From the NCBI GenBank assembly GCA_964578345.1, contig CAZOCP010000001.1:2028-66027 (forward strand): a stretch of 64,000 nucleotides of DNA, read 5' to 3'. Made by a program: the position numbers and the translations under genes. Positions 6,564 through 56,575 of the stretch are shown one piece after another; the stretch's first letter is position 1, and every line of letters begins with the position of its first letter. A model generated the notes under the pieces. The model worked only from the letters and a program-made list of their open reading frames with translations. It did not search any database and was not told where the DNA came from. The DNA comes from Candidatus Woesearchaeota archaeon (lineage in GTDB: Archaea > Nanobdellota > Nanobdellia > Pacearchaeales > GW2011-AR1).

Positions 6564-7472
6564 TCATGATGTATGAAATTCAACAATATCTTTATCTTTT
6601 AAAATATGGCCAAGGCCCACTTTTTGATTTGGAAATTTGCTCGAGGGGCCAGTAACGCGAGTTGCTTTTATTCTTTGAGAAAAACCCTTAAGTATACTTT
6701 CTGCAGCATCTTTGACTGTGGAGTTCTGAGACAAAACCAAGGGGATTTGAGAAATAGATTTGCCCGGCTCTTTCATGTAGACGCGGACGACGCCCATGTT
6801 TTGAAATATTTTTTCTTTTAATTGTTCAATTCCCCTGTTTGAAAAACAAGATATTAGTATTGCAGGAAGTTTTTTACTTCTTATTTTTTCCTGGAGTTTG
6901 CGAATTTCCTCTTCTGATAATAGATCTATTTTATTTACAATTATTATTCTCTTTCCTGTTGTTTTTACTAAATATGGAGAGATTTTTTCTATTTCTTCTA
7001 ACTTAGTAATCACTAGGATAATCAAGTCTGCAGTGTTTGCTACCCCCATATCTAACTTTTCTGATCCTATACTTGGAAGATCAACTATTTGCGCCCTTAC
7101 ACCACGATACTCAAGCGTGCCAACTTCTGGAGTTTGTGTAGTAAAAGGATGCTCAGATATGAGCGGGCAAGCGTTTGTAATTTTTGATAGAAGCGAAGAT
7201 TTGCCTGATTTTGTGAATCCGATGAGAACACATTGAAATCCTTCTTTACGAATAGTCTTACGTGTTGTTTTTCCTATTTTTTTGCTTTTTTCTTTTTTTT
7301 CTTTAAGCTTTTTAAGGCGGGTTTTAAGTTCAGCAAGTAGATTCTCACTAGATTTATGTTTAGGGGCAGATCTAATCATCCCTTCCAGTGCAGTAATTTT
7401 TTCTTCTATTGTTGCTGCCCGCAAATATATCTTTTCTGCATTGATAAATTCATAAGATGCATTAACTGGCAT
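6564..7472 (-). CDS. Obg-family GTPase of DRG type with C-terminal TGS domain
   Basis: G1 GFTKSGKSS, G3 DLPS, G4 NKID; N-terminal helical region and C-terminal TGS-like beta-grasp. Confidence 0.7.
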   Translation of the reverse strand: MPVNASYEFINAEKIYLRAATIEEKITALEGMIRSAPKHKSSENLLAELKTRLKKLKEKKEKSKKIGKTTRKTIRKEGFQCVLIGFTKSGKSSLLSKITNACPLISEHPFTTQTPEVGTLEYRGVRAQIVDLPSIGSEKLDMGVANTADLIILVITKLEEIEKISPYLVKTTGKRIIIVNKIDLLSEEEIRKLQEKIRSKKLPAILISCFSNRGIEQLKEKIFQNMGVVRVYMKEPGKSISQIPLVLSQNSTVKDAAESILKGFSQRIKATRVTGPSSKFPNQKVGLGHILKDKDIVEFHTS

Positions 7473-7522
7473 GTTTCTTTATTGGAGGCAATATTTATTA
7501 ATCCTCTCTCTTTGGAGAAAGC

Positions 7523-36027: not shown

Positions 36028-36101
36028 TAGGCGGGCAGGGATTTGAACCCTGATCAGTTCCTCCGCAAGGAACTATTCTATCCTGGTTGAACTACTCGCC
36101 T
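36028..36101 (-). tRNA. tRNA-Arg (anticodon GCG)
   Basis: Hand-folded. Acceptor AGGCGAG/CCCGCCT (one A-C mismatch), D arm with GG, anticodon stem GTTCC/GGAAC with loop TTGCGGA, T arm CAGGG-TTCAAAT-CCCTG, discriminator A. Confidence 0.65.
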
Positions 36102-37197
36102 GTTGTAGTCTAGCAAGGTTTTTCGGATTATTTGAACTTATCTCTTTTAGCCATTTTTCTACCATTAATTTACCATTTAAGTCTATTTTCCATTTTCCAA
36201 CAGATGGGATAAAGCCCAATTTAATTAGCATTTCTTTAACTTCTCTTATCAAATGTTGAGATTTAATCGTGAAAGTTACTGTCGGATAATTTTTCTTCGA
36301 TTTTGAAAAACTTACACAACCATCCGTATCAAACAACCCCCTTATAAATCCTATATATGTCTTTTTATTTCTACTTTCAATTATCTTTTTAGGTACTTTT
36401 ATTCTTTCAATTTTATTTCCATAAGGTATATCCAAAACTTTATTCTTAAAGTCAAATAATGCTTGGGAGTAAATCTCAAAACCAACAACGCTTTCTAGTT
36501 CCATAAGCCTTAAGTCAATATTATATAAATCTTTATATAATGGAAATAAGAAATTTGTCATGTAGTCTTTTTCTTTTTTACTTATTTTAACTGAAAAGTA
36601 TTTTTTATTAAATGATAAACATCCATCTCCTAGATGGACCCCAATTTCTTCTGCTAGTTCAGGAGACATTTGCTTTGGAAACTTTAGGCCTTTTTGTTTA
36701 TCGCCTTTACTAAAGTTTATTTGATTTATGTTTAAAAGTATTTTTTTATTTATAAAATATTGACGATTTTCTATTTCTAATTTATTACTTCTGTCTTTTC
36801 TTTTTTTCATTTTAGTTTCGATTGCCTTTTTTATAAATTCCTTATTATATTTACCAATTAAATTTTTAACAGCTTTCTTACCTGCATTGCTTCTGATTTG
36901 ATGGAATCTTGGATCATGCCATAGATTTTTTAAATGGTTTATCTTCTTCTCAACACCCTGCTTTCCGCCTTTTATGCTCCCCCAATTGTCCGGTTTTTTA
37001 TCGTAGATTTCTGGATTTGTGAACTCTTTTGGAATTAAATTTTCTGGCATGTATAGCGATCCTAATCTATATTTTTGTAGGGTTTTTACAGGAATTCTCA
37101 CTTTGACAGATAAATCATTAAAATTATTAACTTTATATTTATCTTTTAAAAAATTGAAGAATTTTTCTCGTTCTTTTTTTGTTAGTAAGATTCTCAT
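36073..37197 (-). CDS. free-standing LAGLIDADG-family homing endonuclease-like protein
   Basis: Two LAGLIDADG-type motifs, VHLGDGCLSF and LFDTDGCVSF; the ORF 3' end runs 29 nt into the tRNA-Arg gene. Confidence 0.65.
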   Translation of the reverse strand: MRILLTKKEREKFFNFLKDKYKVNNFNDLSVKVRIPVKTLQKYRLGSLYMPENLIPKEFTNPEIYDKKPDNWGSIKGGKQGVEKKINHLKNLWHDPRFHQIRSNAGKKAVKNLIGKYNKEFIKKAIETKMKKRKDRSNKLEIENRQYFINKKILLNINQINFSKGDKQKGLKFPKQMSPELAEEIGVHLGDGCLSFNKKYFSVKISKKEKDYMTNFLFPLYKDLYNIDLRLMELESVVGFEIYSQALFDFKNKVLDIPYGNKIERIKVPKKIIESRNKKTYIGFIRGLFDTDGCVSFSKSKKNYPTVTFTIKSQHLIREVKEMLIKLGFIPSVGKWKIDLNGKLMVEKWLKEISSNNPKNLARLQQASSSTRIE

Positions 37198-39347: not shown

Positions 39348-40562
39348 ATGAAGATAATCGCAGACTTGCAAATACATTCTAGATTCGCGAGAGCGACAAG
39401 CAAGAATATAACTCTTGACAATTTGGAGAAATATGCAAGGATAAAGGGTGTTGATTTACTAGGAACGGGGGATTTTCAGCATCCTTTATGGAATAAAGAA
39501 ATTAAAGAGAATTTAAAAGAGGACGATAAAGGAATTTTATGGAGTAAAACCGGATTTCCTTTTCTTTGGCAAACAGAGATAAGTTTGATGTTTTCTCAGG
39601 GCGAGAAAAAAAGGGCAGTGCACTTGCTGGTTTTCGCTCCTAATAAAACAATTGCAGATAAAATTATTAATTATCTAAGTAGTAAAGGAAGAATTGATTA
39701 TGATGGCCGGCCGATTTTTGGTATCTCTTGCAAGCAATTTGTGCGCGATCTGAAAGAAATTGAAGATAGAATTGAAATTATTCCCGCACACGCTTTCACG
39801 CCGTGGTTTGGCTTATATGGAAGCGACAGCGGATTTGATTCTCTGCAGGAATGTTTTGAAGAAGAAGCAAAGCATATTTATGCTATTGAATCGGGAATGA
39901 GCGCAGACCCGCCCATGATTTGGCGTTTAAAGGAAAAAGTAAATATTGTTAGTTTTAGCGATGCACATAGTTTTTGGCCTTGGAGATTAGGGAGAGAAGC
40001 AACAATTTTTGAAATTTCAGAAATTTCATATGAAAATATTATTAAAGCAATTAGGATTGGAGATGGAATTGTTGGAACTATTGAAACCCCCCCAAAATAT
40101 GGAAAATATCATTGGGATGGGCATAGAAACTGCAATTTTTCTTGTTCCCCTTTAGAAACTAAAAAATTTAATGGAAAATGCCCTACATGTGGAAATACGC
40201 TGACAATCGGAGTGGAAAATAGAATAGATGCAATTGCAAAGGAAAAAGAGGGATATAAGCCATCCAACGCCATACATTTTTATTCTTTACTGCCTCTGCA
40301 TGAGCTTATAGCATCAGCATATAGTACTTCTATAACATCTAAACTATGCTGGAAAATATATAATGAAATTATTTTAAGTCTAGGCAATGAATTTACAGCG
40401 CTTCTTGAAGCGAAAAAAGAAAAACTATTTTCTCTTAAATTAAGCAACTTGCTTATTGAAATTATTCTTCTTAGCCGAAGAGGAAAGTTAGCGGTTAATC
40501 CAGGATTTGATGGAGAATATGGAACCATTAAGCTACCTGAACAACAGGTAAAACTTTTTTGA
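39348..40562 (+). CDS. PHP-domain nuclease, EndoQ-like (TIGR00375-type)
   Basis: N-terminal PHP signature IADLQIHSRFARATS...GTGDF and a C-terminal CxxC zinc finger CPTCGNTLTIG. Confidence 0.45.
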   Translation: MKIIADLQIHSRFARATSKNITLDNLEKYARIKGVDLLGTGDFQHPLWNKEIKENLKEDDKGILWSKTGFPFLWQTEISLMFSQGEKKRAVHLLVFAPNKTIADKIINYLSSKGRIDYDGRPIFGISCKQFVRDLKEIEDRIEIIPAHAFTPWFGLYGSDSGFDSLQECFEEEAKHIYAIESGMSADPPMIWRLKEKVNIVSFSDAHSFWPWRLGREATIFEISEISYENIIKAIRIGDGIVGTIETPPKYGKYHWDGHRNCNFSCSPLETKKFNGKCPTCGNTLTIGVENRIDAIAKEKEGYKPSNAIHFYSLLPLHELIASAYSTSITSKLCWKIYNEIILSLGNEFTALLEAKKEKLFSLKLSNLLIEIILLSRRGKLAVNPGFDGEYGTIKLPEQQVKLF

Positions 40563-40671
40563 TTTTTATAAATTTATAATGCGCGTCTTTTGTTAAACTA
40601 TTGCAGTTAGGGCATTTATCCTCGAGCGTATAAATTGCAGGAAAGTGAAAAAGGCATTTGCGGAGCTTCAT
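40528..40671 (-). CDS. nop10: H/ACA RNP protein Nop10 (47 aa; absent from the ORF track)
   Basis: Hand-translated as MKLRKCLFHFPAIYTLEDKCPNCNSLTKDAHYKFIKIKKVLPVVQVA, matching the Nop10 pattern M.R.C...YTL.E.CP.C...T..AH. Its start overlaps the aIF2-alpha stop (ATGA), as in the conserved archaeal operon. Confidence 0.6.
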   Translation of the reverse strand: MKLRKCLFHFPAIYTLEDKCPNCNSLTKDAHYKFIKIKKVLPVVQVA

Positions 40672-41366
40672 TTTTCTTTAATTTCAAAGAGAATTTTTTT
40701 CTCCTTTGCTCTTTTTTCTATTGTTTGAAGAGCGAGATCTATTTTATTATTGGCTTCTTTAAACTCTTTTGCAGACATGGTTATTGAAAATCGGGACGAT
40801 CCTAAGTAGCGGATATCTTCACTCGATGATGCAAGTATTTCTTTTATTTCCAAGACTCCTTCATTAGACATAGATTTTAAAATGAATATCTTTTTCGCCT
40901 GTTTTTCCTTTTCTTTTTTTTCAGAGAGCATCTGCGCAATTTTTTTTGCTTCATTTTTTTTCATAAATTGCTCGAGAAGCGAGCTATTATCTCTCGCCAT
41001 CTCTATAAAAATTGAGATATCATATTTCTTTTTTATTTCCTCAATTATTATATCTGGGAGTTCTATTTCTGTTTTCAGCAGGCTGGTAAAATTTTTTTCT
41101 TTTCTATATCTTTCTTCAGAATCTTTTTTTTCTTTAGCAGTAACTCTTCTTAGGCTTAGCTGGGGATTTCCTCCAACAATCTTCATAACTTTGCATACTA
41201 TTTTTTTATTTGGGGCCACGTATTCTCTTAGATTTCTTATTCTTCCTGCTGCAACTTCAGACATCTGTATACTGCCTTCGCCATTTCCTTCTATCCCTAC
41301 AAAAACAGCAGTTCCTTCAATTTTTTTGACTGTACACATTACAATGTCTTCTTCTTTTAGCTCCAT
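40668..41366 (-). CDS. eif2a: translation initiation factor 2 alpha subunit (aIF2-alpha)
   Basis: S1 domain VGIEGNGEGSIQMSEVAAGRIRNLREYV...KVMKIVGGNPQLSLRRV; start set at the internal MELKEED so the overlap with rps27e is only 10 nt. Confidence 0.7.
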   Translation of the reverse strand: MELKEEDIVMCTVKKIEGTAVFVGIEGNGEGSIQMSEVAAGRIRNLREYVAPNKKIVCKVMKIVGGNPQLSLRRVTAKEKKDSEERYRKEKNFTSLLKTEIELPDIIIEEIKKKYDISIFIEMARDNSSLLEQFMKKNEAKKIAQMLSEKKEKEKQAKKIFILKSMSNEGVLEIKEILASSSEDIRYLGSSRFSITMSAKEFKEANNKIDLALQTIEKRAKEKKILFEIKEK

Positions 41367-41539
41367 AAAACCTCCTTTACAAGCGCTCTGACTTTTGCTT
41401 TTCCCCCTTGAGTTTTTAACAGTAAATAATTGCACTGCCGGCATTTTACCTTAAGAGATGCGTTGCCAAATGTTATCTGTTTTCTTGAACATCTTGGGCA
41501 AACCAACTTCAAAAATTTGCTAGTTATCTTTTTGTCCAT
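41357..41539 (-). CDS. rps27e: ribosomal protein S27e
   Basis: C4 zinc ribbon VCPRCSRKQITFGNASLKVKCRQCNYLLLKTQGGKAKV, typical S27e. Confidence 0.85.
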   Translation of the reverse strand: MDKKITSKFLKLVCPRCSRKQITFGNASLKVKCRQCNYLLLKTQGGKAKVRALVKEVLWS

Positions 41540-41569
41540 TAAAAATACTGCTTATCTTATCTTTTAAAC

Positions 41570-41830
41570 TTTTACTATCAAAAAAACGATGTGCCACCTC
41601 GCCTTAAAGGGCGAGGTTTGTGATAGGCACTCGTTTCATCAAGGACGAAGTCCTTGAGTGTCATCGAGAATCGGAGATTCTCGAGATTTGGATGCTCAGG
41701 AATGCAGCGCCCTAAGGGGCGCGGTTTTCACCGCATTCCTGACATGAATAACTACATGGTTTAGATAACTTGATTTTGGCAGTTATCCATTAGAGAACTG
41801 CGTGCAAATGTCATGCAACTAAGGCAGTTC
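41570..41830 (-). ncRNA. hairpin-dense structured element (copy A of a repeated motif), ending on the minus strand with a hairpin plus T7 run; possible small structured RNA or long 3' UTR
   Basis: Four or more perfect 7-10-bp stems (TCGAGAATC/GATTCTCGA, CAAGGAC/GTCCTTG, CCTCGCC/GGCGAGG, AGAGAACTGC/GCAGTTCTCT), a conserved box TGAAACGAGTGCCTATCACAAACC and a T7 tract. Confidence 0.3.
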
Positions 41831-41831
41831 T

Positions 41832-43139
41832 CTATAATCCCTGTTCTAGAACTTTCTGTAGCTCTACAATAAACTGTGTTTCGCATTTTTTAGATATCAA
41901 GCATCCCGCAGCATTTTGATGCCCGCCGACTTCCCCGCCCAGCTGCACTACGACTTGATTAAGAATCTCTCGGACATTTCTTCCTTCTTTACCAACAATT
42001 CTAGCAGAAACTTTTATCTTATCTTCATTGTACGCTAAAGCGACTATTATCGTTCCTTCTGCATATTTAGGGGAATGCGACATAATTGATGCAACAGTGC
42101 CGATTATAGTGTCTTTGATATAATCTTTTGCATTAATTATAGCATAGTTTTTTCCTAGAATTTTTTCAGCTTCAGTTACATGCTTGAGTGCGGCAACTAA
42201 ATTTTGTTTGTATTCTATATATATCCTTTCAGCTTCATCTTTGCATTTTTTATTGCCTAAACAGAATCCTAAAGCTACTCTTGGGTGTTCCATTCTACTG
42301 CAAGCGTTTATGAGAGCTGAAAATTCTCTCGCGTCTTCCTGCCTGTTAAAGGCTTTTATTAGGTAAAGATTCCCTATTAAGTCATGATGGTTTTTTTCAC
42401 CCATGCTTCTCAGCATTACTGCCGTGCTTAAGTTTGTCATTTCTTCTTCTGTAAGCTCAGCGAGAGTTTTATACTTTCCATCTGTTTTCTGTATATTTGC
42501 TTCCCTCAAAAGTTCAAGAACTCCGCGATAAGACCCCGTAACTCCTGGAATGAAAGTATTTGTCGAATATTCAAGCGCCTTGTCTAATGAACGTGAGGAG
42601 GGATATATTAACAGGCCTTTTTTAATAATTGTTTCAGCATCTTTAAGTATTTCATCGTAAATTTTGTTTATATTTTTTTCCAGTGAATCCCCGACCATTC
42701 CTATAACTGCCAGATAGGCAAGGTCCTTGTTCTGTTCAGAAAGAGATTTTGCGAATAAGTATGATATAGCCGAGCCTGAAATCTGTTCGTGTTTTTCCAA
42801 ATGAGGGTTAATCATCATTACATTAGCAGGAATATCTTGAATAATTTCATGATGATCAAAAACAAATATTTCTGTTTTTTTGTCTTTTAAATAACTCAGG
42901 CTTCCAGATGCCAAATCCAGGAAAATTAAGCAATGGTTTTCAGGCAGCTCTTTTAATAGTTCTTCGTCCAATCCCTTTACTATACGAAGATGAAATTTCT
43001 TGTTTTGTCTTTGTAATGCTCTTGCAAATATTGCTGCCGCAGTAATCCCATCCGTATCGTGATGGCTGATTATTGTCAACGGCTTCAGCTTGCTTGCTTC
43101 GCTGATTCTCTCTATTGCTTTTTTTATTATTTCGCGCAT
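41832..43139 (-). CDS. DHH/DHHA1 phosphoesterase, archaeal RecJ/Cdc45-like (GAN-type)
   Basis: DHH motifs ISHHDTDGI and VFDHH, DHHA1 GGGH motif (GGEVGGHQNAAG); lies adjacent to rps15 as in many archaea. Confidence 0.65.
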   Translation of the reverse strand: MREIIKKAIERISEASKLKPLTIISHHDTDGITAAAIFARALQRQNKKFHLRIVKGLDEELLKELPENHCLIFLDLASGSLSYLKDKKTEIFVFDHHEIIQDIPANVMMINPHLEKHEQISGSAISYLFAKSLSEQNKDLAYLAVIGMVGDSLEKNINKIYDEILKDAETIIKKGLLIYPSSRSLDKALEYSTNTFIPGVTGSYRGVLELLREANIQKTDGKYKTLAELTEEEMTNLSTAVMLRSMGEKNHHDLIGNLYLIKAFNRQEDAREFSALINACSRMEHPRVALGFCLGNKKCKDEAERIYIEYKQNLVAALKHVTEAEKILGKNYAIINAKDYIKDTIIGTVASIMSHSPKYAEGTIIVALAYNEDKIKVSARIVGKEGRNVREILNQVVVQLGGEVGGHQNAAGCLISKKCETQFIVELQKVLEQGL

Positions 43140-43639: not shown

Positions 43640-43969
43640 ATGAAGTTACCAAAGGAAACTAGAAGATACTGTCCCTATTGCAGAAAACATACTGAACAGA
43701 CAATTACAACTGCGAAACAGAAATCAAGATCTGCAGCTCATCCATTATCTAGAGGTTCGACTCCTCGTCTACAATCTAGAGGATTAAGAGTTGGTTATGG
43801 AAATCAAGGACGCTATTCAAGAAAGAGTCCTAAAGACTGGAAGCGCAAGACTAAAGTTACTAAAAGAATTGGTATTGTTTACAAATGCAAAACATGCGGA
43901 AAAATCAAAGGAATTAGAAAAGCCATACGCAGTTCAAGAATTGAAATAGGAGAAAAAGTATCAAAGTAA
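43640..43969 (+). CDS. rpl44e: ribosomal protein L44e (eL42)
   Basis: Start set at the internal MKLPKETRRYCPYCRKHTEQ...YKCKTCGK; C4 zinc motif and basic composition typical of L44e. Confidence 0.75.
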   Translation: MKLPKETRRYCPYCRKHTEQTITTAKQKSRSAAHPLSRGSTPRLQSRGLRVGYGNQGRYSRKSPKDWKRKTKVTKRIGIVYKCKTCGKIKGIRKAIRSSRIEIGEKVSK

Positions 43970-44845: not shown

Positions 44846-44873
44846 TCAGGAATCTTCGATTCCTGACGTTTTG
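44846..44873 (+). terminator. intrinsic-type terminator hairpin plus T tract
   Basis: TCAGGAATC-TTC-GATTCCTGA 9-bp stem followed by CGTTTTG, immediately after the stop of 44543..44821. Confidence 0.4.
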
Positions 44874-44904: not shown

Positions 44905-44977
44905 TAGCCCTGCCCGGATTCGAACCGGGGTCGCGGGCGCCAAAGGCCCGCATCCTTGACCGCTAGACTACAGGGCT
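44905..44977 (-). tRNA. tRNA-Gln (anticodon TTG)
   Basis: Hand-folded. Acceptor AGCCCTG/CAGGGCT (perfect), U8, D arm with GG, anticodon stem CGGGC/GCCCG with loop CTTTGGC, T arm CCCGG-TTCGAAT-CCGGG, discriminator A. Confidence 0.8.
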
Positions 44978-45192: not shown

Positions 45193-48100
45193 TCAAAACC
45201 ATTTGCCAAGAACCTCCTGTCTCTCTTTCTCCCTTCCAAATATACTCTGAATATATTTTTGAGTCAGCTCAAGACTCTCAAGCAAGTACGGACTAACTTT
45301 ATATTTTTTAGCCAAGTCAAGAGCTGGAAGCAAATATTTTAAAATACTTCCTTCTGAAACAGTAAAAATAAGCTTTCCTCCGCATCTTGTACATTTCCCC
45401 GTTAAAGGGGGTCTTCTAAATTTTTCATTGCAACCAACACATCTAAAAACTTGCTGTGAAAATTTTCTAAGATTTCCTCGTATATCTCTAATAAAATGCC
45501 TTTCAATTATCAATCTCGAAACATCCCTTACATCTACTGCCCTCAACTTACCGCATAAGTTCATCATAGAATCAACTTTGTCCTGCATGGCGGGCAAAGT
45601 CTTGTAAACTGAACATAATGGCCCAGCATTAATATTTGAAGTATCATAAGAAAACCATAATTCTTCAAACTCTTTATTTGTTCCGAGTCTGCCTCTTACT
45701 TGCTCCATTTTAATTTCAAAAGGAGAAGAATGTCTTTCGGCAGCTTCATAAAGAGCCAAAGGAATTTTTTTTGAAACATCAACATCAAATATCATATCAT
45801 CAACCTCATTCGCTCGAATTCTCATATTTAAAACAAGTGGGGCGTCTTGAGTGCCTCCTCTATGCGAAGGCAAAAACTTGCGTGAAAAATTTAATAATAA
45901 ATCCATTAAAAGCATTACTGCTGCTTCATCTCCATCGCAATCTCTCCTCATTGCGGCATGAATATAAGGAGAAGCTAATAAAGCCTGTGTTTGTGAAAAC
46001 CCTATTAACCTGCCTGCTACCGCGGCAGAAGTATGTGGAGACATACAAGCAAACAAACAGCCTACCAAGTCTTCTCGTTTAGAAGCGTTAAAAAACCTAT
46101 TCAGATTATATAGTTTTTCTAACTCATCATCAATAAACCTGGCGACTGATAAAAAAACAGCGTCTGCTCTTTCATCTGGAGTAACAGGACAAGATGGTAA
46201 GATAATATCGTGAGGGTAAATCTCCAATATCTGATCGTCTCTCTCAAGCTCCTTTCCATAAATATCAGAAGTATAGCCCATGTTCTTCAGCTTTGAAATG
46301 CTCGTCCCAATCTCACAGGGTTTAAAATGAGTCAGGGGCATCTCAGTCATATCGTATCTGATTGTTCCATCTTTGTTTACATTAAGATTGTGTTTTGCTC
46401 TGAGTAACCCTTTAGATAAATGCTCGCAATTATGGTCTTTGTTGCTGGTTCCTCTAACTCCTTTAACAATAAAGCTTATTTCCTCTTCTCTAAGTCCAAT
46501 TTTCTTTCTAGCTGAAGTGTAGTATGAAAAGACATCAATGTGGTTATTGTGATATGATTTCGAAAATCCATGTTCTTTGCACGTTTCAAATGAAAAAGAA
46601 TCGCATGAAGAACAGTAGTATCTCAATATGCATTCTTGTCTGCACTTCTCGCAAAAAGGATAAACTGAATCAATTGAGCAGTTTCTGCAGAAATACAGGG
46701 GAAACTCTGCCTTAACTCCTCCTTCCTCTATAGCAGACAAAAGGCTTCTCATTCTTCCTCCTTCCTCTCCTACAGGAAAAAGAACATGCGGACTTCCTAC
46801 AAGCTTGCGCAATTTAGCTTTCTCTGGTCTGCCCATTCTCGCGCCTATAAATGTGCCTGATTTATCTTTTATTTTAACAGGACAAAGTTCATTAATAATA
46901 TCTAATACCGGCTTATTGGATATTCTAACAGAAATGGTATCTATGTTTTTTTCTAATAAAGAATAATCAAGAATACCTAAATTAAACAGTAGCGCTTTGG
47001 TATTTTTTTCAGAAAGAACAACATTCTCAATGCTCAGGCTATGCTCACACCCTATAATTTCAAGTGCCCTTTTTCCTTTAGAAAATCTCTCTTTATCTTG
47101 GCGCGTAAAGGGTAGCACAAGACTCTTTTCTCTAACTTCTCCATGTGCAATCCAGTCTAATAAAGCAAGAAAATCTTCATAAGAAATTTCCCTCCAATAG
47201 TAAATAAAAGAAGGGTGAAGAGGAACTTTATATTTTTCTGACATAATCAGAGCATCAGAAAAAACAGGAAACATTTCACTATTCCCTCCTGCAGCCATTA
47301 GCTCTTCCAGCCAATACTGCTCAATATAGCCTGCCTCCTCTAACGGATGATTCCTATTTAAAAAATCTCCATAAGGAACTAGCAAATCTCCCAAATAAAT
47401 AATCTCAATAATCTGTGGGTATATCTTCAAAGTCTCGTTATGGTCTTTAAGAATTCTAACGGCCCCGTCTAATAATTTAACTATCGGACCGTCTATGTTA
47501 TCACAGATTGCGATTGTACATCCTTTTGTAGGTTTCTCGATTTTCAACTGTGTCCCGACTGCAATAAACCCTTGGGTAACCGCCATTGTCGCAGGATGAA
47601 GCGCAAGAGTAGAGTATCCTGTATTTCGGCATCTGCCATACCTCAAACGAAAAGCTCCAGACCTAGAAGGGTGCGCAAAAACCGGCCTTCCGGCAACTAA
47701 ATCTTGAATGTATGTGGCTCCAGAACGCTGGCCTCCTGCCTCCCTCTCTTTAATTTTCTTTTGTAGTTTAACAAACTCTTCCAGCCAATCCCACCCGGAT
47801 AAATTAAATCCTTTTTGTTTTAATTTTATTATTCTCCCTAAAACCTTCGGCGCCTTCTGTGCAAGGCCTTCTCCAATAACTAAAGCAAATCCGCTCCTAA
47901 TAAAATTAGTCTCTATTCGCGGAAGATCTTTATAATTATAAACTTCTTTGTCCTCGCTAGGGTCTCCGGTTAATTGAACAGGCAAATTTTGCATAAGAAA
48001 CTCCAGTTCTTTTTCAGAAGGAAGATACTGTAAATTTGTAATGCGCTCGTGGTATTCATAGCACTCGTGAATTCCTCGTTTGATTTCGTCATCTGTGGGG

Positions 48101-48633
48101 TCGTAAAGAGCATATCCAAAAATTTCACGAAGGTAATCAATAATAACTAAAGAAAAAGCAGCCTCGGTCCCCCCTGCCGATCTAATTGGCCCCGAATAAT
48201 ATGGAGCAAAAAAATCTTCTCCTTTAGAAGTCTTCTTTAATTTAAGTTGTATAAATCCCTCAATAGGAGAAGAAACATACCCTAAAGTCAAATATCCTAT
48301 TGCAACTCTGATTCCCGCCTCAATTGCTTCTAAATGACTTTGGAATTTACAAAACTTTTCTTTTGCAATTTCCTCTGCAATCTTCAATGCAACAGCAGGG
48401 TCAAGAGAGCCGTATTGTTTCTCTAATTCAAAAATTCTTCGGATAATTCCTTGGTCAATAATCTGAGGGTATAAAACTGAAACTAATCCGACGACTCTTT
48501 CTGCCAAAGAATTAGCTAGGGGAACTTCAACATCGCTCACAGGGTCGTATCCCTTCTTTTTTGCCTCCTTTGCTATAGTATAACATATTTGAACATTGTC
48601 TTCAATAGAAGAAAAATGATGATTAATATGCAC
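45193..48633 (-). CDS. polC: DNA polymerase II (PolD) large catalytic subunit DP2
   Basis: 1146 aa; multiple Cys clusters (CRNCSIDSVYPFCEKC, CSSCDS) and the conserved DP2 length and organisation; no intein. Confidence 0.9.
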   Translation of the reverse strand: MHINHHFSSIEDNVQICYTIAKEAKKKGYDPVSDVEVPLANSLAERVVGLVSVLYPQIIDQGIIRRIFELEKQYGSLDPAVALKIAEEIAKEKFCKFQSHLEAIEAGIRVAIGYLTLGYVSSPIEGFIQLKLKKTSKGEDFFAPYYSGPIRSAGGTEAAFSLVIIDYLREIFGYALYDPTDDEIKRGIHECYEYHERITNLQYLPSEKELEFLMQNLPVQLTGDPSEDKEVYNYKDLPRIETNFIRSGFALVIGEGLAQKAPKVLGRIIKLKQKGFNLSGWDWLEEFVKLQKKIKEREAGGQRSGATYIQDLVAGRPVFAHPSRSGAFRLRYGRCRNTGYSTLALHPATMAVTQGFIAVGTQLKIEKPTKGCTIAICDNIDGPIVKLLDGAVRILKDHNETLKIYPQIIEIIYLGDLLVPYGDFLNRNHPLEEAGYIEQYWLEELMAAGGNSEMFPVFSDALIMSEKYKVPLHPSFIYYWREISYEDFLALLDWIAHGEVREKSLVLPFTRQDKERFSKGKRALEIIGCEHSLSIENVVLSEKNTKALLFNLGILDYSLLEKNIDTISVRISNKPVLDIINELCPVKIKDKSGTFIGARMGRPEKAKLRKLVGSPHVLFPVGEEGGRMRSLLSAIEEGGVKAEFPLYFCRNCSIDSVYPFCEKCRQECILRYYCSSCDSFSFETCKEHGFSKSYHNNHIDVFSYYTSARKKIGLREEEISFIVKGVRGTSNKDHNCEHLSKGLLRAKHNLNVNKDGTIRYDMTEMPLTHFKPCEIGTSISKLKNMGYTSDIYGKELERDDQILEIYPHDIILPSCPVTPDERADAVFLSVARFIDDELEKLYNLNRFFNASKREDLVGCLFACMSPHTSAAVAGRLIGFSQTQALLASPYIHAAMRRDCDGDEAAVMLLMDLLLNFSRKFLPSHRGGTQDAPLVLNMRIRANEVDDMIFDVDVSKKIPLALYEAAERHSSPFEIKMEQVRGRLGTNKEFEELWFSYDTSNINAGPLCSVYKTLPAMQDKVDSMMNLCGKLRAVDVRDVSRLIIERHFIRDIRGNLRKFSQQVFRCVGCNEKFRRPPLTGKCTRCGGKLIFTVSEGSILKYLLPALDLAKKYKVSPYLLESLELTQKYIQSIFGREKERQEVLGKWF

Positions 48634-50197
48634 GATTGATTTCCTCCTCTACGCCGAAATCATAAACTTTCAGTTCTCTTGTTTTTAGGTTTAACACTGG
48701 AACTTTTGCAGGTTCTGGAATATTTCCAACTTTCTCTTCAAATTCTGTCTGGGCCTGCCAACAGCTTCCAGTTATAATAAGAGTCCCGTTGTAATTCTCA
48801 ATATCTAGTCTATGCACTTCTCCTGTACATAAAACATCTGGAACTTCTTCTATAACCAATGGATCTTTTTCTGCATTTGGGATATAGATAACTGAAGAAT
48901 GTGTTGGTGCAAGGTGCCTTCTCTTTAACATATGTCTAACTGCTTTGGCGGGCGATCTGTGCGCTTTCATTTCCCTTAATTCAGGAATCTCATTAATAAA
49001 AGAATGTATGCTTGCTCCATGGTACATTAAAACTTTAAATTCTTTGTCCTGCTCATAGAGCTTCACAAGCGAGGGATTAGTCACAAGCACTAAATTTTCT
49101 ATTTCGTATAAAGGAGAGCCGTAATATCTATCGATTAATGGCTGTGGTTCGGCAACTCTTGTTGCGTCATGCTGCCCAGGACACATAAAAATAATTATGT
49201 TTTTAGGTATTCTTTTCATATAAGAAGCCAAAAGAGAATATTGCTCTTTCATGCTTTTCAAAGCTAAAACCTGCTCTTGCCCGGGAAAAATTCCAACTCC
49301 ATCGACATTGTCTCCGGAAAAAAACAAATATTTAATTTTCTTAGCTGATTCTTCATCACTGTTAATCCACTCTAAAAAACGTTCGAAGCTTTTGTATAAA
49401 TGTCTGTCGCTCCCACAATGAACGTCGGATAAAAAAGCAATTGATATGTCTTGCTCGAATTTTGATTTCTCAAGAAGAAAAGCATCTGGGAAATAAATAT
49501 CATGAATAAAAATAATATCTCGGTTTCCTGACGCTTTAACAGCAACTACATCATCTAGCTGCAGTTCTCGGGCTTTGTTAAAAACCTCTAGCCGCTCTAA
49601 TTTTACCAAGCCGCTGATTTTTCCTGTCAAATCTTCCAAAGAAATAATTAAGTTCTTATTTTTTGTCTGCCTCTTTTCATTTACGATTCCAATAATGCTT
49701 AATTGTTGCCTCTCACTAGAAATTTTATTTATTGAACACAGATTCGTCAAATCTTGCCTTTGCATTAAAATACGTTGTAGTTGTTGATAGCGCGAACGAA
49801 AGTGATTTATAAAGTCAGAAACCTCGATTTTCTTAGAGGGAAGCGTAGATGAATAAAATAGTCTATAAGAAGAAGTCTGGGGGTTTATATTTTCTATTCC
49901 CGCACTTGATAGATTTATTTTTTCTTTTCTAATTTCAAATTTAATTCCTAATTTAATAAAAACATTCTCTATAGATAATTTATCTTCGCCTGACAGTTGC
50001 CCTAAAATTTGCTGAACATATTCTATATTATTTGATAAAGTAGATTTGGTTATTAATTTCTGCCCGGAAAATCTAACAAGATTTTCCAAAAAAACTTGCG
50101 CAATTTTTTTATCTTGTATGCTCTCTAAAATATCAAAAATCTCTTTTTCTAATAATAGCCCGCTCTCCCGAATTGTGTTTAAAATATCAGAATTCAT
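48623..50197 (-). CDS. polB: DNA polymerase II (PolD) small subunit DP1 (calcineurin-like phosphoesterase/exonuclease)
   Basis: OB-fold region plus metallophosphoesterase motifs (FLSDVHCGSD, FFSGDNVDG, GQHD, GHxH). Confidence 0.9.
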   Translation of the reverse strand: MNSDILNTIRESGLLLEKEIFDILESIQDKKIAQVFLENLVRFSGQKLITKSTLSNNIEYVQQILGQLSGEDKLSIENVFIKLGIKFEIRKEKINLSSAGIENINPQTSSYRLFYSSTLPSKKIEVSDFINHFRSRYQQLQRILMQRQDLTNLCSINKISSERQQLSIIGIVNEKRQTKNKNLIISLEDLTGKISGLVKLERLEVFNKARELQLDDVVAVKASGNRDIIFIHDIYFPDAFLLEKSKFEQDISIAFLSDVHCGSDRHLYKSFERFLEWINSDEESAKKIKYLFFSGDNVDGVGIFPGQEQVLALKSMKEQYSLLASYMKRIPKNIIIFMCPGQHDATRVAEPQPLIDRYYGSPLYEIENLVLVTNPSLVKLYEQDKEFKVLMYHGASIHSFINEIPELREMKAHRSPAKAVRHMLKRRHLAPTHSSVIYIPNAEKDPLVIEEVPDVLCTGEVHRLDIENYNGTLIITGSCWQAQTEFEEKVGNIPEPAKVPVLNLKTRELKVYDFGVEEEINRAY

Positions 50198-51399
50198 TGG
50201 AATAAAGCACGATCTAAAATATCCCGCGCCTTTGGTTTAATGTTTTGGCCTAACATCAGTTTTATCTCGCGCATTCTCCCCCTACGTCCTTTGCTGATTA
50301 CTTGCGCAGTTATAATCCCAAGCATATCAAACTCCGCGAGAATATCTGAAATTCTTCTTTGTGTTAGTATTTCATTTTTCGTCTTCTCGCATAATAATTG
50401 ATAAGCACCATAAACTTCGCCTGTGTAAATGGGGCTAGACTTATTTGTATCGTCTAATTGCATAATTGCAGCCAAAACCAATTGAAATTGTCTTGGCTCG
50501 CTCTCGATAATATCAAGCATTTTGTCTTTCTCTATTTTCTGATTTGCAGAATCTATATGGGATAATGTAATAGACTTGCTCTCTTCTCTTTCTGCCAGCT
50601 CTCCCGCAACTCTCAGCAAATCAAGCGCTCTTCTGGCGTCCCCGTGTTCTCTAGCTGCATAAGCCGCGCATTTTGCTAGAACTCCTTCGCCTAATACCCC
50701 TTGTTTAAATGCGTGCTGCGCTCTCTCTCTCAAAATATCCTGTAATTGCAGTGCATTATAGGGCGAGAAAACCATCTCCTCCTCTCCTAAAGAGCTCTTA
50801 ACTCTAGGATCCAAATTATCCTTAAATGTTAGGCTGTTGCTTATCCCAATAATGCTGATCTGGGCGTGTCTCAGCTCTGAATTCAGTCTGGTCAAAGTAT
50901 AAATAAAACTATCAGAAATCTTTTTGACTGCTTGGTCTATTTCATCTAATACTATAATAATAATTTGTTTTTTATAATCTATTAATTCAATAAATCTTCG
51001 ATAAACTTCATCCGTAGGAAGTCCGGTTGCCGGGACTGTCCCCCCTAAAGTATTTATCAACTCTGCAAGAATCCTGTATTCTGTGTCTGCAATTTTTTTA
51101 AGTTTGCAGTTTATATAAACAAATTGCAGGTTCTCCTCTCCAAGTTCTTTTATTTTATCCATTAGCTTCAAACCAACGTGTTGGACGCATAGCGTCTTTC
51201 CGCTTCCTGTCTTGCCATAAACAAAAAGATTGCTGATTCTCTCTCCTCGCAGCGCGGGCGCCAATATGGAAGCCACCGAAGCAATTTGTTCGTCTCTGTG
51301 CGGAACAAAATCAGGCGTATAGTTCGATTGTAAACAGCTCTTATTTTTAAATAAACTCTGAGATACAAATGCATTAAAAATACCCTCAACTCTGTCCAT
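50194..51399 (-). CDS. cdc6: Orc1/Cdc6 replication initiator
   Basis: AAA+ Walker A VYGKTGSGKT, Walker B, sensor motifs and a C-terminal winged helix. Confidence 0.9.
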   Translation of the reverse strand: MDRVEGIFNAFVSQSLFKNKSCLQSNYTPDFVPHRDEQIASVASILAPALRGERISNLFVYGKTGSGKTLCVQHVGLKLMDKIKELGEENLQFVYINCKLKKIADTEYRILAELINTLGGTVPATGLPTDEVYRRFIELIDYKKQIIIIVLDEIDQAVKKISDSFIYTLTRLNSELRHAQISIIGISNSLTFKDNLDPRVKSSLGEEEMVFSPYNALQLQDILRERAQHAFKQGVLGEGVLAKCAAYAAREHGDARRALDLLRVAGELAEREESKSITLSHIDSANQKIEKDKMLDIIESEPRQFQLVLAAIMQLDDTNKSSPIYTGEVYGAYQLLCEKTKNEILTQRRISDILAEFDMLGIITAQVISKGRRGRMREIKLMLGQNIKPKARDILDRALFQ

Positions 51400-51439
51400 A
51401 TATCACCTCTAAATTCTAGATGTAATAAGAGATTATAAA

Positions 51440-52060
51440 CTTATAGGTATTATTTTTCATATTTCCTGTGGAAAAAAGAATTTAAAGAGAATAAACCCTC
51501 CTTGAAGAAAAAAACAAACAATATCTCACACCTTGCTTTCCTATGGAGAACATAAACAAATGAAACATTCCCAAATTAATAAATGATTTGTATATAACCA
51601 TAAATTTGTATATAACCATAAAATACAGTTTATATTAACTTTATACTAAATACAATTTATATTAACTTTATACTATATAATAATACTCTAGAGTATTATT
51701 AATTACCAATCAGAACATTATATATAACCATAAATACACTTTTTATTACATAGTCCTATTAATCCGAATATTATACATAACTATAAAAAATACTTTCTAA
51801 TATATTATATTTAATTATATACTATTATATAATATCTTTTTCTATATAGTATATTTAATTATATACTATTATAAAACATACTTTCCAATATAATACATTT
51901 ACTTATATACTATTACATAATATATTTTTCTATATATTATATTTATATATGGAAAAATTTAAAAAGGAAGAAAAAATCCACGAGGAACAAACTCACTATA
52001 TAAATCCCCTCCATGAGAAACAATAGGGTCTCCAGGAAACAACCTTAAACCAAGAAACAA
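51440..52060. promoter_or_regulatory. putative replication origin (oriC) with ORB-like dyads, AT-rich direct repeats and a palindrome
   Basis: ORB-like TTTCC-N3-GGAAAA (51462-51475), TTTCC-TAT-GGAGAA (51536-51550), TCCA-CGA-GGAAC (51976-51992), TCCATGAGAAAC (52006-52022), TCCAGGAAAC (52029-52044). Direct repeats TATATAACCATAAAT x3 and TTTATATTAACTTTATACT x2. A 22-nt perfect palindrome lies at 51679-51700; the element is adjacent to cdc6. Confidence 0.6.
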
Positions 52061-52204
52061 CTCCAACCCAAGAAACAACACCCCATATTTCATATTATCA
52101 CCAATCCACACAATCTCCCCACCCCCTTCCCACAACCTATTATCCCCTTTATCCAGTACAAAAAATAGAGAAAAGTTTATATATATCTCACAATTACAAA
52201 CCAC

Positions 52205-52465
52205 ATGCCATTGGACAAACGCCCACTTAAAGACATAATAGGAAAACTAGTAGTGACCAAAGAAGGAAGACGTCTCGGTATTGTGAAAGACATAACTTTC
52301 GAAACAAGAACAGGCGAACTCATACAAATAATTCTTAAAGACACTACCCCATATACCAAAAATCTCAATCTAGAAACATCCCCCCAAAAAGAAACACTTA
52401 TTCCATACAACACCATTATCGCAATAGGAGACTTTGTAGTTATTTCAGAAGAAGATTTAATATAG
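52205..52465 (+). CDS. PRC-barrel domain protein
   Basis: GKLVVTKEGRRLGIVKDITFETRTGELIQIIL...IGDFVVISEEDL pattern typical of the PRC barrel. Confidence 0.5.
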   Translation: MPLDKRPLKDIIGKLVVTKEGRRLGIVKDITFETRTGELIQIILKDTTPYTKNLNLETSPQKETLIPYNTIIAIGDFVVISEEDLI

Positions 52466-52497
52466 ACCACCAATTTTAAATATACAAAATCACAACA

Positions 52498-56324: not shown

Positions 56325-56396
56325 GTAGACTAATAAAATTTAATAGAGATTATTTAAGTCTTGCGAAACTTATTTTCCAATCCTCAATGGCCCTCA

Positions 56397-56464
56397 AGGA
56401 CGAAAGTCCCTAATGAAACGAGTGCCTATCAAAACCTCACCTCATCAAGAATTGGAAATTCTTG
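56397..56464 (+). repeat. copy B of the repeated structured motif (GGAC-GAAA-GTCC hairpin, conserved box ATGAAACGAGTGCCTATCAAAACC, 8-bp hairpin CAAGAATT-GGA-AATTCTTG)
   Basis: The 22-24-nt box is near-identical to the reverse complement of 41604-41628, with flanking hairpins in the same relative order. Confidence 0.4.
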
Positions 56465-56575
56465 ACTGCCTTCAAGGACAATTTACTTTTACTCTATCTT
56501 CTTTCTAAACACACATAGAGAAATATATATTATATAAGATAATTCTTTATATACTCTCTATTTTTTCCTTACTAA

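Follow-up and report, generated by a model that had tools for sequence, protein, structure and literature searches.

BOX elements of Streptococcus pneumoniae (boxA-boxB(n)-boxC) join fixed 5′ and 3′ modules through a variable number of short internal hairpins, and are strongly folded, intergenic, multicopy and devoid of a transposase of their own. REP sequences and BIMEs of enterobacteria and pseudomonads, with their REPINs and RAYT transposases, are short extragenic palindromes forming hairpins. They stand alone or in mosaics of several units with short linkers, in many copies that mostly follow the 3′ ends of genes or lie between convergent genes; terminal inverted repeats and target duplications are absent, and compensatory changes preserve the stems. 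Among archaea (Haloquadratum, Halobacterium), palindrome-associated transposable elements (PATEs), which are the fused left and right ends of IS200/IS605-IS1341 elements, span roughly 100-500 nt without a transposase gene, carry a hairpin near each end, fold on one strand, have an element end set by a short fixed sequence, and can be transcribed into structured RNA (PMC4615843). HgcC RNA (RF00062; Methanocaldococcus, Pyrococcus), a G+C-rich structured RNA of AT-rich archaea with a UUUA-type-loop hairpin preceded by ..AAC, is reported to carry a motif resembling the right end of IS200/605 (PMC4615843). Finally, classical MITEs, which derive from DDE elements, are small intergenic sequences without coding capacity, present in many copies. 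They can cut genes short and supply stop codons or terminators, and they have been catalogued in bulk, DPANN genomes included (PMC11602168). General MITE censuses mention MITE-rich Woesearchaeota genomes.

The locus described here lies in the window, the whole 64-kb stretch of Candidatus Woesearchaeota DNA that was analysed. Between a RecJ-like gene and the S27e-aIF2alpha-Nop10 operon it holds a block of about 258 nt, put together as a mosaic from non-coding, structured repeats that are dispersed in Pacearchaeota. These hairpin repeats are probably of the REP/BIME, BOX or PATE/REPIN kind and were inserted into the RecJ 3′ end. The surrounding genes include the following.

40528-40671, minus strand: Nop10-like
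41357-41539, minus strand: S27e
41832-43139, minus strand: RecJ-like DHH protein
43640-43969, plus strand: rpl44e, intact and in its clade-typical place

A preliminary description of this DNA had S27e, aIF2alpha, the Nop10-like and RecJ-like genes and the opposite-strand rpl44e all correctly placed, and had rightly found no zinc-ribbon ORF in the block. Its proposal that the element had displaced rpl44e does not hold, as close relatives among 80 Pacearchaeota/Nanoarchaeota genomes have the same divergent rpl44e, upstream of S15-RecJ-S27e-aIF2alpha, without the element. Judged from these gene orders, the divergent position is ancestral to the clade and independent of the element; since the arrangement is ancestral and clade-wide, rpl44e was never displaced.

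The six stems listed in the preliminary description are all present as exact inverted repeats.

41596-41617: (A)CCTCGCC/GGCGAGG(T)
41639-41657: (T)CAAGGAC/GTCCTTG(A)
41664-41684: TCGAGAATC/GATTCTCGA
41696-41742: (T)CAGGAATGC/GCATTCCTG(A)
within 41707-41722: GCGCCC/GGGCGC
41791-41834: (T)AGAGAACTGC/GCAGTTCTCT(A)

On the minus strand the block ends, as had been claimed, with CCTCGCC-CTTTAA-GGCGAGG followed by TGGCACATCG and T7. Its location was right as well; its extent was not quite, the true span being 41577-41834 instead of 41570-41830, slightly wider on the RecJ side since the first stem and the stop codon of that gene overlap. The 281 nt from 41560 to 41840 have a minus-strand minimum free energy of -114.7 kcal/mol, as compared to -65.0 +/- 4.6 for 200 dinucleotide shuffles (z = -10.9), and the plus strand reaches z = -8.9. 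Nowhere else in the window are perfect G+C-containing hairpins so dense, and the G+C content there is 43-47%, the window as a whole having 34%. The motif T[CA]RRG[AG]AY, defined post hoc from data already seen, describes 6 palindromes in the 64-kb window as compared to 0.03 in shuffles. A seventh, at 41696-41742, was missed by the scan, its 27-nt loop and 8-nt arm giving a spacing just over the limit. Family-type palindromes are enriched about 15-fold in the window genome, with 6-7 per 64 kb against 4 per 622 kb in relatives.

Such a structured stretch might be taken for a divergent known RNA (SRP RNA, RNase P RNA, a C/D or H/ACA sRNA, or a riboswitch) or for a decayed rpl44e, a reading that we regard as extremely improbable and effectively refuted. 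Its length of about 260 nt and raised G+C in an AT-rich genome do resemble SRP or RNase P RNA, and a UGAUGA hexamer stands at 41632-41637 on the minus strand. However, the fold consists of local hairpins in a row and has neither SRP helix 5, a long-range helix, nor the RNase P P4 pseudoknot core, the element is multicopy and non-syntenic, and rpl44e is intact elsewhere. The Rfam comparison that the preliminary description had proposed for SRP, RNase P, C/D and H/ACA models returned no match at gathering thresholds or at E <= 10: across the whole window the gathering thresholds admitted two tRNAs only, and at E <= 10 nothing credible appeared in 41450-41950. The hexamer was also considered as a C box and rejected, as a paralogue has UAAUGA and no D box follows.

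The junctions of the block emerge from comparison with relatives. Of 29 close relatives, 25 have a RecJ-S27e gap of just 15-123 nt, and RecJ of the 29 ends ...ELQKVL(E/D)xEL(V/I)KV*, its last codons (GTAAAAGTTTAA) abutting the S27e promoter directly and doubling as the S27e TATA box. The same 12-mer in the window is identical to the RecJ 3′ ends of L001, L008, L011 and L015. No homologue of the element was found at the RecJ-S27e position of 80 loci, which together with the short gaps speaks against the conserved syntenic RNA gene that had been envisaged.

41577-41834, minus strand: whole inserted block, about 258 nt, from TAGAGAACTGC... to ...CATCGTTTTTTTGAT, delimited by the 29-relative comparison
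41832-41834, minus strand: new RecJ stop TAG, from the first bases of the block
41559-41576, minus strand: remnant of the ancestral RecJ end (A GTA AAA GTT TAA) with the S27e TATA box AAAGTTTAAAAG, outside the element

The block is thus flanked by the RecJ codon TTA (Leu435) and by the remnant of the ancestral final codons, which together with the TATA box now lies about 258 nt from the RecJ body. RecJ of the window ends ...VLEQGL*, having lost the three ancestral C-terminal residues VKV, and the downstream remnant reads ...LIVKV* in a different frame. The ancestral locus read ...GGA TTA | GTA AAA GTT TAA, the block entering 9 nt ahead of the ancestral stop, its first bases supplying the new TAG and its last bases, the U7-GAU tail of the family, leaving the old codons and the S27e promoter intact 1-18 nt downstream. 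This single comparison of empty and filled sites is made across species at about 70% protein identity, and the TA (2 nt) at both junctions could reflect either a duplication or an ambiguous alignment. For a strain-level empty site, the exact S27e and a window-edge protein were looked up and gave no records; RecJ gave one contig, which ends within the element. An independent short-read assembly breaks inside the element. The T7 run is a plausible archaeal terminator for RecJ transcripts. Because it probably ends RecJ transcription and S27e would retain its own promoter, the insertion may have been nearly neutral.

The same features could be read as a structured 3′ UTR, a terminator or an insulator that acts in cis and arose on the spot to separate RecJ transcription from the S27e-aIF2alpha-Nop10 operon, considering that the block starts at the RecJ stop codon, shares the orientation of RecJ and S27e, and ends in a hairpin and T7 run 1-18 nt before the conserved S27e TATA box. 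We consider this improbable. The gaps of 15-123 nt suffice in relatives, where the RecJ stop overlaps the S27e TATA box; units of the block recur at numerous unrelated loci, facing either way and in some cases antisense to flanking genes; and a truncated RecJ is the mark that an insertion leaves, as opposed to elaboration on the spot. As a by-product, the block may still act as a terminator.

Within the inserted mosaic, three modules can be told apart.

41791-41834, minus strand: Module 1, an ‘H1-type’ hairpin, UAGAGAACUGC-22 nt-GCAGUUCUCUA, with an exact 11-bp stem
41764-41787, minus strand: Module 2, hairpin GAUAACU-10 nt-AGUUAUC (GGAUAACUGC type)
41577-41745, minus strand: Module 3, core unit of the multicopy family, AUGUCAGGAAUGC ... 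CAUCGUUUUUUUGAU, aligned with 21 other copies

H1-type hairpins form a second dispersed family, rarer than that of the core: a homologue at L002 423-463 differs by two compensatory pairs, related hairpins occupy L176 1364-1450, and in L258 a core unit sits nested inside an H1-type hairpin that flanks it. Hairpins related to Module 2 (GGAUAACUGC / GGAAAACUGC) likewise occur in L002 and L176. The core of the window measures 169 nt as compared to the canonical 121 nt because two extra hairpins are inserted, and the covariance model R1 matches it at 41577-41657 (65.3 bits, E 1.6e-11) and 41692-41745 (28.2 bits). Its parts, in 5′-to-3′ order, are as follows.

41692-41745, minus strand: core 5′ long hairpin, outer stem UCAGGAAUGC/GCAUUCCUGA, inner hairpin GCGCCC-CUUA-GGGCGC, internal loop GGUGAAAAC on the 5′ side
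41685-41695, minus strand: hinge GAGCAUCCAAAUC (family consensus GAGCAUCCAAAA), nearly invariant alignment columns
41639-41684, minus strand: double small-hairpin cassette after the hinge, UCGAGAAUC-ucc-GAUUCUCGA, linker ugacac, UCAAGGAC-uuc-GUCCUUGA
41583-41637, minus strand: core 3′ long hairpin, outer stem AAACGAGUGCC / GGCAC-A-UCGUUU with an invariant bulged A, internal loop UAUCACAAAC, inner hairpin CCUCGCC-CUUUAA-GGCGAGG
41577-41586, minus strand: tail U7-GAU, the conserved 3′ end of the family; flanks of about 30 copies diverge right after GAT

Canonical 121-nt copies are without the double small-hairpin cassette, the grammar of which (a UCA..UGA hairpin plus a 6-nt linker) recurs in L020, L176, L204, L227, L244, L252 and L263. 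Related pieces are found elsewhere in the window.

56343-56490, plus strand: ‘el2’, a degenerate partial copy 14.8 kb away (nhmmer E 6e-7)
44846-44866, minus strand: solitary family-type small hairpin UCAGGAAUC-gaa-GAUUCCUGA, then GCGCAUCAAAA, 39 nt 3′ of tRNA-Gln(ttg)
23890-23932, plus strand: solitary tandem pair of family-type small hairpins, AAGAAUU-ccu-AAUUCUU and UCAAGAACU-aaa-AGUUCUUGA, within a 508-nt intergenic region

The partial copy el2 comprises, in order, a leader AUAGAGAUU, a hairpin UCAAGGAC-gaaa-GUCC, an exact 19-nt match to the core 3′ hairpin (ATGAAACGAGTGCCTATCA, 56413-56431) and UCAAGAAUU-gga-AAUUCUUGA. An inversion between the two 19-nt matches, at 41.6 kb and 56.4 kb, as the event that moved rpl44e was rejected in view of the clade-wide gene arrangement.

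Comparison of copies shows that the folds are maintained as folds. In the MAFFT alignment A2, 98.7% of cells are paired and 17 of 37 pairs show double changes, a level that none of 500 shuffles reaches, while slid controls are 38-52% paired; in A3, with 29 copies, 96% of cells are paired and compensatory changes touch 30 of 37 pairs. Covariation across the family extends over helices 1 and 2 of the 5′ long hairpin and helices 3-5 of the 3′ long hairpin and is so strong that the stems must be regarded as under selection. In the stems G.U outnumbers A.C by 15 to 3, and therefore one strand folds, which in the window is the minus strand with its terminal T-run. The preliminary description is borne out in that a discrete, highly structured non-coding element lies directly 3′ of the RecJ-like gene; the covariation it had proposed to look for exists across dispersed paralogous copies and not across orthologous loci. 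The alternative it had held against itself, a decaying or mobile sequence, comes nearest to the evidence, though the stems covary.

The canonical unit of 121 nt consists of two long hairpins, the hinge and a closing tail UUUUUGAU. Each long hairpin contains an internal loop on one side only, which ends in AAAC, and is capped by a 7-bp apical stem whose loop is UUUUAA/CUUUAG; between 0 and 4 small UCA...UGA hairpins with 6-nt linkers are added after the hinge, before it or in the apical loops. A metagenome scan recovered about 28 true copies, every contig being 30-41% G+C; 13 of them come from a single sample with differing flanks. The family copies (about 30) sit at unrelated intergenic loci with unrelated flanks on both sides, four of them on one 8.8-kb contig (L252) and two on L227. 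Genomes L020, L013 (a half unit) and L022 hold further copies at three different loci, each occupied in one genome only, and occupancy of orthologous sites is patchy. With respect to neighbouring genes, 8 copies are sense, 7 antisense, 5 convergent and 1 divergent, divergent promoter gaps being avoided. One element occupies the same place, on the 3′ side of a tRNA-Ile, in both L175 and L249, contigs that have themselves diverged. Several copies, unrelated flanks, conserved ends and compensatory stem changes together make this a dispersed structured repeat family in the operational sense. We found no description of the family in the literature. Four IMG/VR pattern scans for a viral or plasmid origin gave chance matches only, none fitting model R1; one recurrent match was coding sequence of a giant-virus contig.

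Set against the known systems, the family shares with BOX the modular plan of fixed 5′ and 3′ modules with a variable number of small hairpins between them, the strong folding, intergenic multicopy occurrence and want of an own transposase, but its sequence is unrelated, the BOX host is bacterial, module sizes differ, and extra hairpins occur here in apical loops too. The traits of the palindromes listed above for REP and BIMEs are shared, as regards target duplications in that no consistent one was seen; in contrast to them, the family lives in a DPANN archaeon whose genome is very small, no RAYT was found, the core is a larger two-hairpin unit of 121 nt, the units all face one way where BIME units alternate, and the closing motif is UCA...UGA where REP has 5′ GTAG. 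From PATEs, with which it has in common the archaeal host, size range, want of a transposase gene, paired hairpins, one-strand folding and fixed end, the family differs in that no autonomous IS with these ends was met among about 30 copies, the left ‘target’ is degenerate (T, T/G), and the hairpins are much longer and two-tiered, with nested hairpin cassettes. Likeness to HgcC lies in the G+C-rich structure and in the core unit apical hairpins; one copy (L252 8410-8510) scores 19.5 bits against a gathering score of 50, and neither the window copy nor canonical copies L167 and L173 match. Apart from this sub-threshold score, Rfam at E <= 10 gave nothing for the canonical copies either.

Our best reading is a non-autonomous mobile hairpin element. 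Mobile-element traits include the mixed orientation relative to genes, the core unit nested in an H1-type hairpin and the assembly break within the element. Terminal inverted repeats are absent (32% of shuffles align as well as the first 20 nt with the reverse complement of the last 20), and 30 flank pairs reveal no consistent, shared target duplication. Detectors based on these two features would probably miss the family. At the left flank, T stands at -2 in 28 of 30 copies and T or G at -1 in 28 of 30, positions -3 to -5 being simply T-rich, while the right end is invariant (..TGAT); this degenerate preference differs from the fixed 4-5-nt target of well-studied IS200/IS605 elements. The long hairpins, at positions 1-58 and 64-116 of the 121-nt unit, are subterminal palindromes that fold on one strand. 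We infer that the elements spread as non-autonomous mobile DNA via a single-stranded, strand-specific folded intermediate. An HUH/Y1-type enzyme (IS200/IS605 TnpA- or RAYT-like) acting in trans is suggested because of the lack of terminal inverted repeats and of a consistent target duplication, the hairpin near each end, the 5′ T-T/G preference and the fixed ...UGAU 3′ end. No ORF lies between modules in about 30 copies, and Pfam scans of 28 ORFs found no transposase in the window, the only recombinase being a Xer-like tyrosine recombinase at 2335-3102; the search also turned up a LAGLIDADG ORF. A regular-expression screen of 1033 ORFs in about 870 kb of Pacearchaeota DNA found nothing Y1-HUH/TnpB-like, a weak test given the small coverage per genome, in which a single-copy enzyme is easily missed. 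Two other classes were tried and rejected: a classical DDE-type MITE, which the family resembles in small size, lack of coding sequence, copy number and intergenic position, for want of terminal inverted repeats and a fixed-length target duplication, and an integron attC, as the R''/R' boxes (RYYYAAC ... GTTRRRY) are absent on both consensus strands and copies are dispersed, not one per gene.

It is conceivable, though unlikely, that the 121-nt unit represents first of all a family of functional small RNA genes, the window copy being a minus-strand gene that ends at T7. As variants, the RNA might be an omega-RNA/PATE-RNA-like guide scaffold, left by or serving a transposon-encoded nuclease, or it might bind a protein. 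Strong purifying selection on stems, visible as strand-specific covariation with G.U pairs, is what one would expect of such genes, as are the invariant unpaired motifs (hinge GAGCAUCC, loop UAU..CAAAC, bulged A, tail UGAU), the conserved 3′ T-run and the modular hairpin expansions at fixed points known from many structured RNAs. The weak HgcC similarity in one copy and the position 3′ of tRNA-Ile point the same way, and so does the fact that PATE-derived RNAs are expressed, with a phenotype, in Halobacterium (PMC4615843). TATA-like motifs are mildly enriched, about 2-fold, 11-30 nt upstream of copies (-30..-11), but their distances vary, the upstream flanks are unrelated and no promoter is conserved. 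Copies face both ways relative to genes and occupy orthologous sites patchily; L013 has a half unit and the window, at 56343-56490, a degenerate fragment; the motif screen found no nuclease or TnpB nearby; and the HgcC score is far under threshold and confined to that copy. A small RNA is compatible with mobility and does not exclude it.

We advance with reserve the further idea that the 121-nt unit and its UCA...UGA/6-nt linker grammar are the nucleic-acid half of an undescribed DPANN-specific mobilisation or RNA-guided system, kept by function, in genomes that hold hardly any other mobile DNA, and not as a REP- or MITE-like parasite. Such a system might use the unit as a guide-RNA/omega-RNA-like scaffold or as a folded single-strand recombination site of an unrecognised enzyme.

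The genomes of DPANN archaea rank with the smallest and most compact of any cell, and these archaea are usually called poor in mobile DNA. What has been found in Pacearchaeota is a family of non-coding elements, modular, multicopy and strongly structured, that Rfam does not detect. The window provides a clean natural experiment, in which an insertion cut three codons from a replication-associated RecJ/GAN-like gene, donated a stop and parted that gene from the promoter of the ribosomal S27e-aIF2alpha-Nop10 operon, destroying neither. Short-read assemblies break at blocks of this sort, which can also pass for new RNA genes or for rearranged operons. Covariance model R1 offers a handle for counting copies per genome and for seeking the partner enzyme by phylogenetic profiling, and, if transcribed, the units would be candidates for PATE/omega-RNA-like functions in archaea.

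The non-coding gap between the S27e gene (41357–41539, minus strand) and the gene for a RecJ-like DHH protein (41832–43139, minus strand; closest database relatives only ~74% identical) is 292 nt long and holds a hairpin-dense block of about 258 nt (41834–41577, minus strand). Its Pfam neighbours are S27e, RecJ-like DHH/DHHA1, S15/S13e and L44e, with weak matches for Nop10-like and aIF2alpha proteins. The hairpin density noted in the preliminary description is real and non-random: every stem listed there is an exact inverted repeat and correctly placed, and the minus-strand fold of 41560–41840 (281 nt) reaches −114.7 kcal/mol, where dinucleotide shuffles give −65.0 ± 4.6 (z = −10.9); for the plus-strand fold z is −8.9. 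Nowhere else in the 64-kb window do perfect G+C-containing hairpins cluster so strongly, and the block has 43–47% G+C versus 34% for the genome. Identity with a known RNA, such as SRP or RNase P RNA, found no support: Rfam at gathering thresholds returned two tRNAs and nothing else from the whole window, and 41450–41950 held no credible match at E ≤ 10. The fold, a row of local hairpins without a long-range helix, does not resemble SRP or RNase P RNA either.

By its RecJ protein the organism belongs to the Pacearchaeota/Nanoarchaeota (DPANN archaea). The genomic setting was compared across 80 related loci, in each of which S15, RecJ, S27e, aIF2alpha and L44e were located. The order S15–RecJ–S27e–aIF2alpha is kept throughout, and none of the 80 carries block-related sequence at the RecJ–S27e position, where the promoter remnant is the only conserved part; the initial reading of the block as a resident structured RNA gene is not supported. 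Nor has the element displaced rpl44e, as first proposed: in close relatives without any hairpin block this gene is likewise divergent and upstream of S15, so its separation from S27e is an old clade feature. The RecJ–S27e gap measures 15–123 nt in 25 of 29 close relatives and, in the remaining four, 420–920 nt of sequence unrelated to the element. In these relatives RecJ ends in ...ELQKVL(E/D)xEL(V/I)KV*, and the S27e TATA box is made up of the closing RecJ codons, most often GTA AAA GTT TAA, plus the AA that comes next. The window protein ends in ...ELQKVLEQGL*, with its TAG stop at 41832–41834, and A GTA AAA GTT TAA AAG is found again about 258 nt on, at 41576–41559, directly upstream of S27e, which allows an ancestral GGA TTA / GTA AAA GTT TAA to be reconstructed with the block at the break. 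A TA dinucleotide stands on both sides, leaving the junction ambiguous by those 2 nt.

The best explanation is that dispersed hairpin repeats forming a mosaic, similar to REP/BIME, BOX and PATE elements, were inserted into the final RecJ codons, between GGA TTA and GTA AAA GTT TAA. The first block bases, TAG AG.., supply a new stop codon; the cost to RecJ is the residues VKV only, and the S27e promoter is left untouched. RecJ transcripts likely end at the T7 run, just before this intact promoter. The overlap of RecJ coding sequence and S27e operon promoter is itself tight and conserved in about 25 genomes (L001–L028 and L080 among the compared loci; window 41559–41576). The same organism has also been assembled independently from short reads, and there the contig (L266, Logan SRR8863434, 2770 nt) stops 61 nt past the RecJ stop, within the block, consistent with an assembly break caused by a repeat or hairpin; another assembly is 100% identical to the window across 11 kb, outside the block.

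The repeat family came to light through an exact 19-nt match between 41621–41639 and 56413–56431, the latter within a second, decayed copy in the window:

41745–41577, minus strand: core copy of the block (169 nt), as aligned to the canonical unit
56343–56490, plus strand: degenerate partial core copy in intergenic 56325–56575, between an Lhr-type helicase and an ORF; leader AUAGAGAUU, the 19-nt match and small hairpin UCAAGAAUU-gga-AAUUCUUGA, without the 3′ halves of the stems

Homologues lie between S3Ae and tRNA-Gln in one other genome (L020) and upstream of an unrelated ORF in a second (L002); both differ from the window by compensatory changes in their stems. A metagenome collection scanned with a pattern from the core 3′ hairpin returned 101 stretches, of which about 28 are true relatives, all on contigs of 30–41% G+C, and the rest chance matches on high-G+C DNA; 13 of the ~28 come from a single sample, with differing flanks. 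From an alignment of these copies a canonical unit of 121 nt emerges, AUGUCAAGGAACUUGACGAAAACUCCACCUUUUAAGGUGGAGUGGUUCCUUGAGCAUCCAAAAAACGAGCGCCUAUUCAAACCCCACCUUUUAAGGUGGGGUGGCGCAUCGUUUUUUUGAU. Its left boundary is ATGTC and its right boundary TGAT, beyond which the copies abruptly cease to be similar. A covariance model of this unit (R1) found further copies in L020, L022 and L013 (half unit without the 3′ hairpin), at three different loci each filled in one related genome only.

The core unit consists of two long hairpins, with the hinge GAGCAUCCAAAA between them and UUUUUGAU after. Each has an outer stem of 9–12 bp, a one-sided internal loop of 9–11 nt with AAAC at its end, and a 7-bp apical stem closed by UUUUAA or CUUUAG. 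In a MAFFT alignment of 13 copies, standard pairs fill 98.7% of cells and double-sided changes occur in 17 of 37 pairs, values reached by none of 500 shuffles; sliding the partners by 1–3 columns lowers pairing to 38–52%. With 29 copies aligned to the covariance model, and so biased towards it, 96% of cells are paired and 30 of 37 pairs are compensatory. G.U pairs outnumber A.C mismatches 15 to 3, and the folding strand is thus the one ending in the T-run. The covariation, which the preliminary description proposed to look for across related genomes, is strong among dispersed copies and not seen across orthologous loci. One portion of the 3′ outer stem (CGAG-GC / GC-C-A-UCG), with its bulged A, is invariant, which suggests sequence-specific recognition.

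Individual copies further carry zero to four small hairpins of the form UCARRRAYN-loop-NRUYYYUGA, with 6-nt linkers GNGCNN. Some stand within the hinge, on one side or the other of CAUCCAAA (L170, L173, L184, L192, L227, L263, L020 and the window). The apical loops can hold them too, as in one copy (7650–7381) on the groundwater contig L252. Small hairpins of this form are also found singly or as tandem pairs and triplets in L176, L204, L227 and L244, and at three places in the window:

41639–41684: within the block
23890–23932: two in tandem, in an unusually long intergenic region (23570–24077, 508 nt)
44846–44866, minus strand: solitary, UCAGGAAUC-gaa-GAUUCCUGA then GCGCAUCAAAA, 39 nt 3′ of tRNA-Gln(ttg) (44905–44977, minus strand)

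The 508-nt region also holds a 10-bp all-G+C-rich hairpin, GCGCGCCGUC-ccccaccc-GACGGCGCGC, at 23647–23674; it has no Rfam match and could harbour a further RNA or mosaic. The upstream third of the block (41834–41746) is a different hairpin type, AGAGAACUGC.../GGAUAACUGC..., found again in L002 and L176; in L258 a core unit lies between its two arms, implying a nested arrangement. Given these differing hairpin types, the window block is a mosaic of at least three unit kinds.

All copies are intergenic. Between co-directional genes eight are sense and seven antisense; five lie in convergent gaps and only one in a divergent gap. Several are near tRNA gene 3′ ends: the L020 orthologue of window tRNA-Gln(ttg) has a full core unit immediately at its 3′ end, and in L175 and L249 a unit lies 10–25 nt 3′ of a tRNA-Ile. 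Contig L227 has two copies and L252 (8.8 kb) three to four:

637–730, minus strand: L252 copy
~7381–7650, minus strand: L252 copy with double-hairpin cassettes in both apical loops
8413–8529, minus strand: L252 copy

The last two flank a segment of ~760 nt with a small ORF upstream of one of 141 aa, by look a toxin–antitoxin-sized pair, and a restriction-modification-like cluster lies between the other L252 copies. No member of the family turned up in the IMG/VR viral contigs. Four near-identical giant-virus contigs there (L084, L089, L092, L135) have a hairpin, ACGAGUGCC-uaugcaaaaccagc-GGCACUCGU, sharing stem and loop start with the core 3′ hairpin; it lies within a coding region and was judged coincidental.

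Of 30 copies, 28 have T at position −2 and 28 have T or G at −1, while TGAT closes the right side of every one. The unit has no terminal inverted repeats, and the copies share no consistent target duplication. In these traits, in a hairpin near each end and in one-strand folding, the copies recall elements of the IS200/IS605 type and what derives from them (PATEs, REPINs/REP), a resemblance of traits and not a lineage assignment; for such derivatives there are precedents in archaea, and they can be transcribed (PMC4615843). No Y1-HUH, RAYT or TnpB candidate was found in ~870 kb of Pacearchaeota DNA or among 28 window ORFs, and in none of the copies does an ORF lie between the modules. The sole recombinase seen in the window is a 255-aa, probably XerA-like, tyrosine recombinase (2335–3102, minus strand; Phage_integrase, E 2.7e-26). 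An ORF of 374 aa (36028–37197, minus strand) carries a LAGLIDADG homing-endonuclease domain (Pfam E 3.9e-11) and shares ~29 nt with the 5′ part of tRNA-Arg(gcg) (36028–36101); next to this tRNA gene it may represent what is left of an intron- or intein-type endonuclease. Elsewhere, a minus-strand row comprises a DNA polymerase D large subunit-like ORF (45193–48633), an ORF (48623–50197) and Orc1/Cdc6 (50194–51399); next to the last, ~1.1 kb without ORFs of at least 110 aa (51400–52497) is a candidate replication-origin region, and a 9-bp palindrome lies at 51087–51129.

The conserved unpaired motifs, the T-run and a two-fold excess of TATA-like motifs 11–30 nt upstream of copies would fit a transcribed, functional RNA, possibly combined with mobility like that of PATE RNAs or omega-RNAs. 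A conventional RNA gene family, however, is opposed by copies without any conserved promoter, by orientation-independent placement and by patchy occupancy. Among Rfam families only HgcC gave an echo: a single copy scored 19.5 bits, where the gathering score is 50. The core-unit family appears undescribed, and its modular features are unusual.
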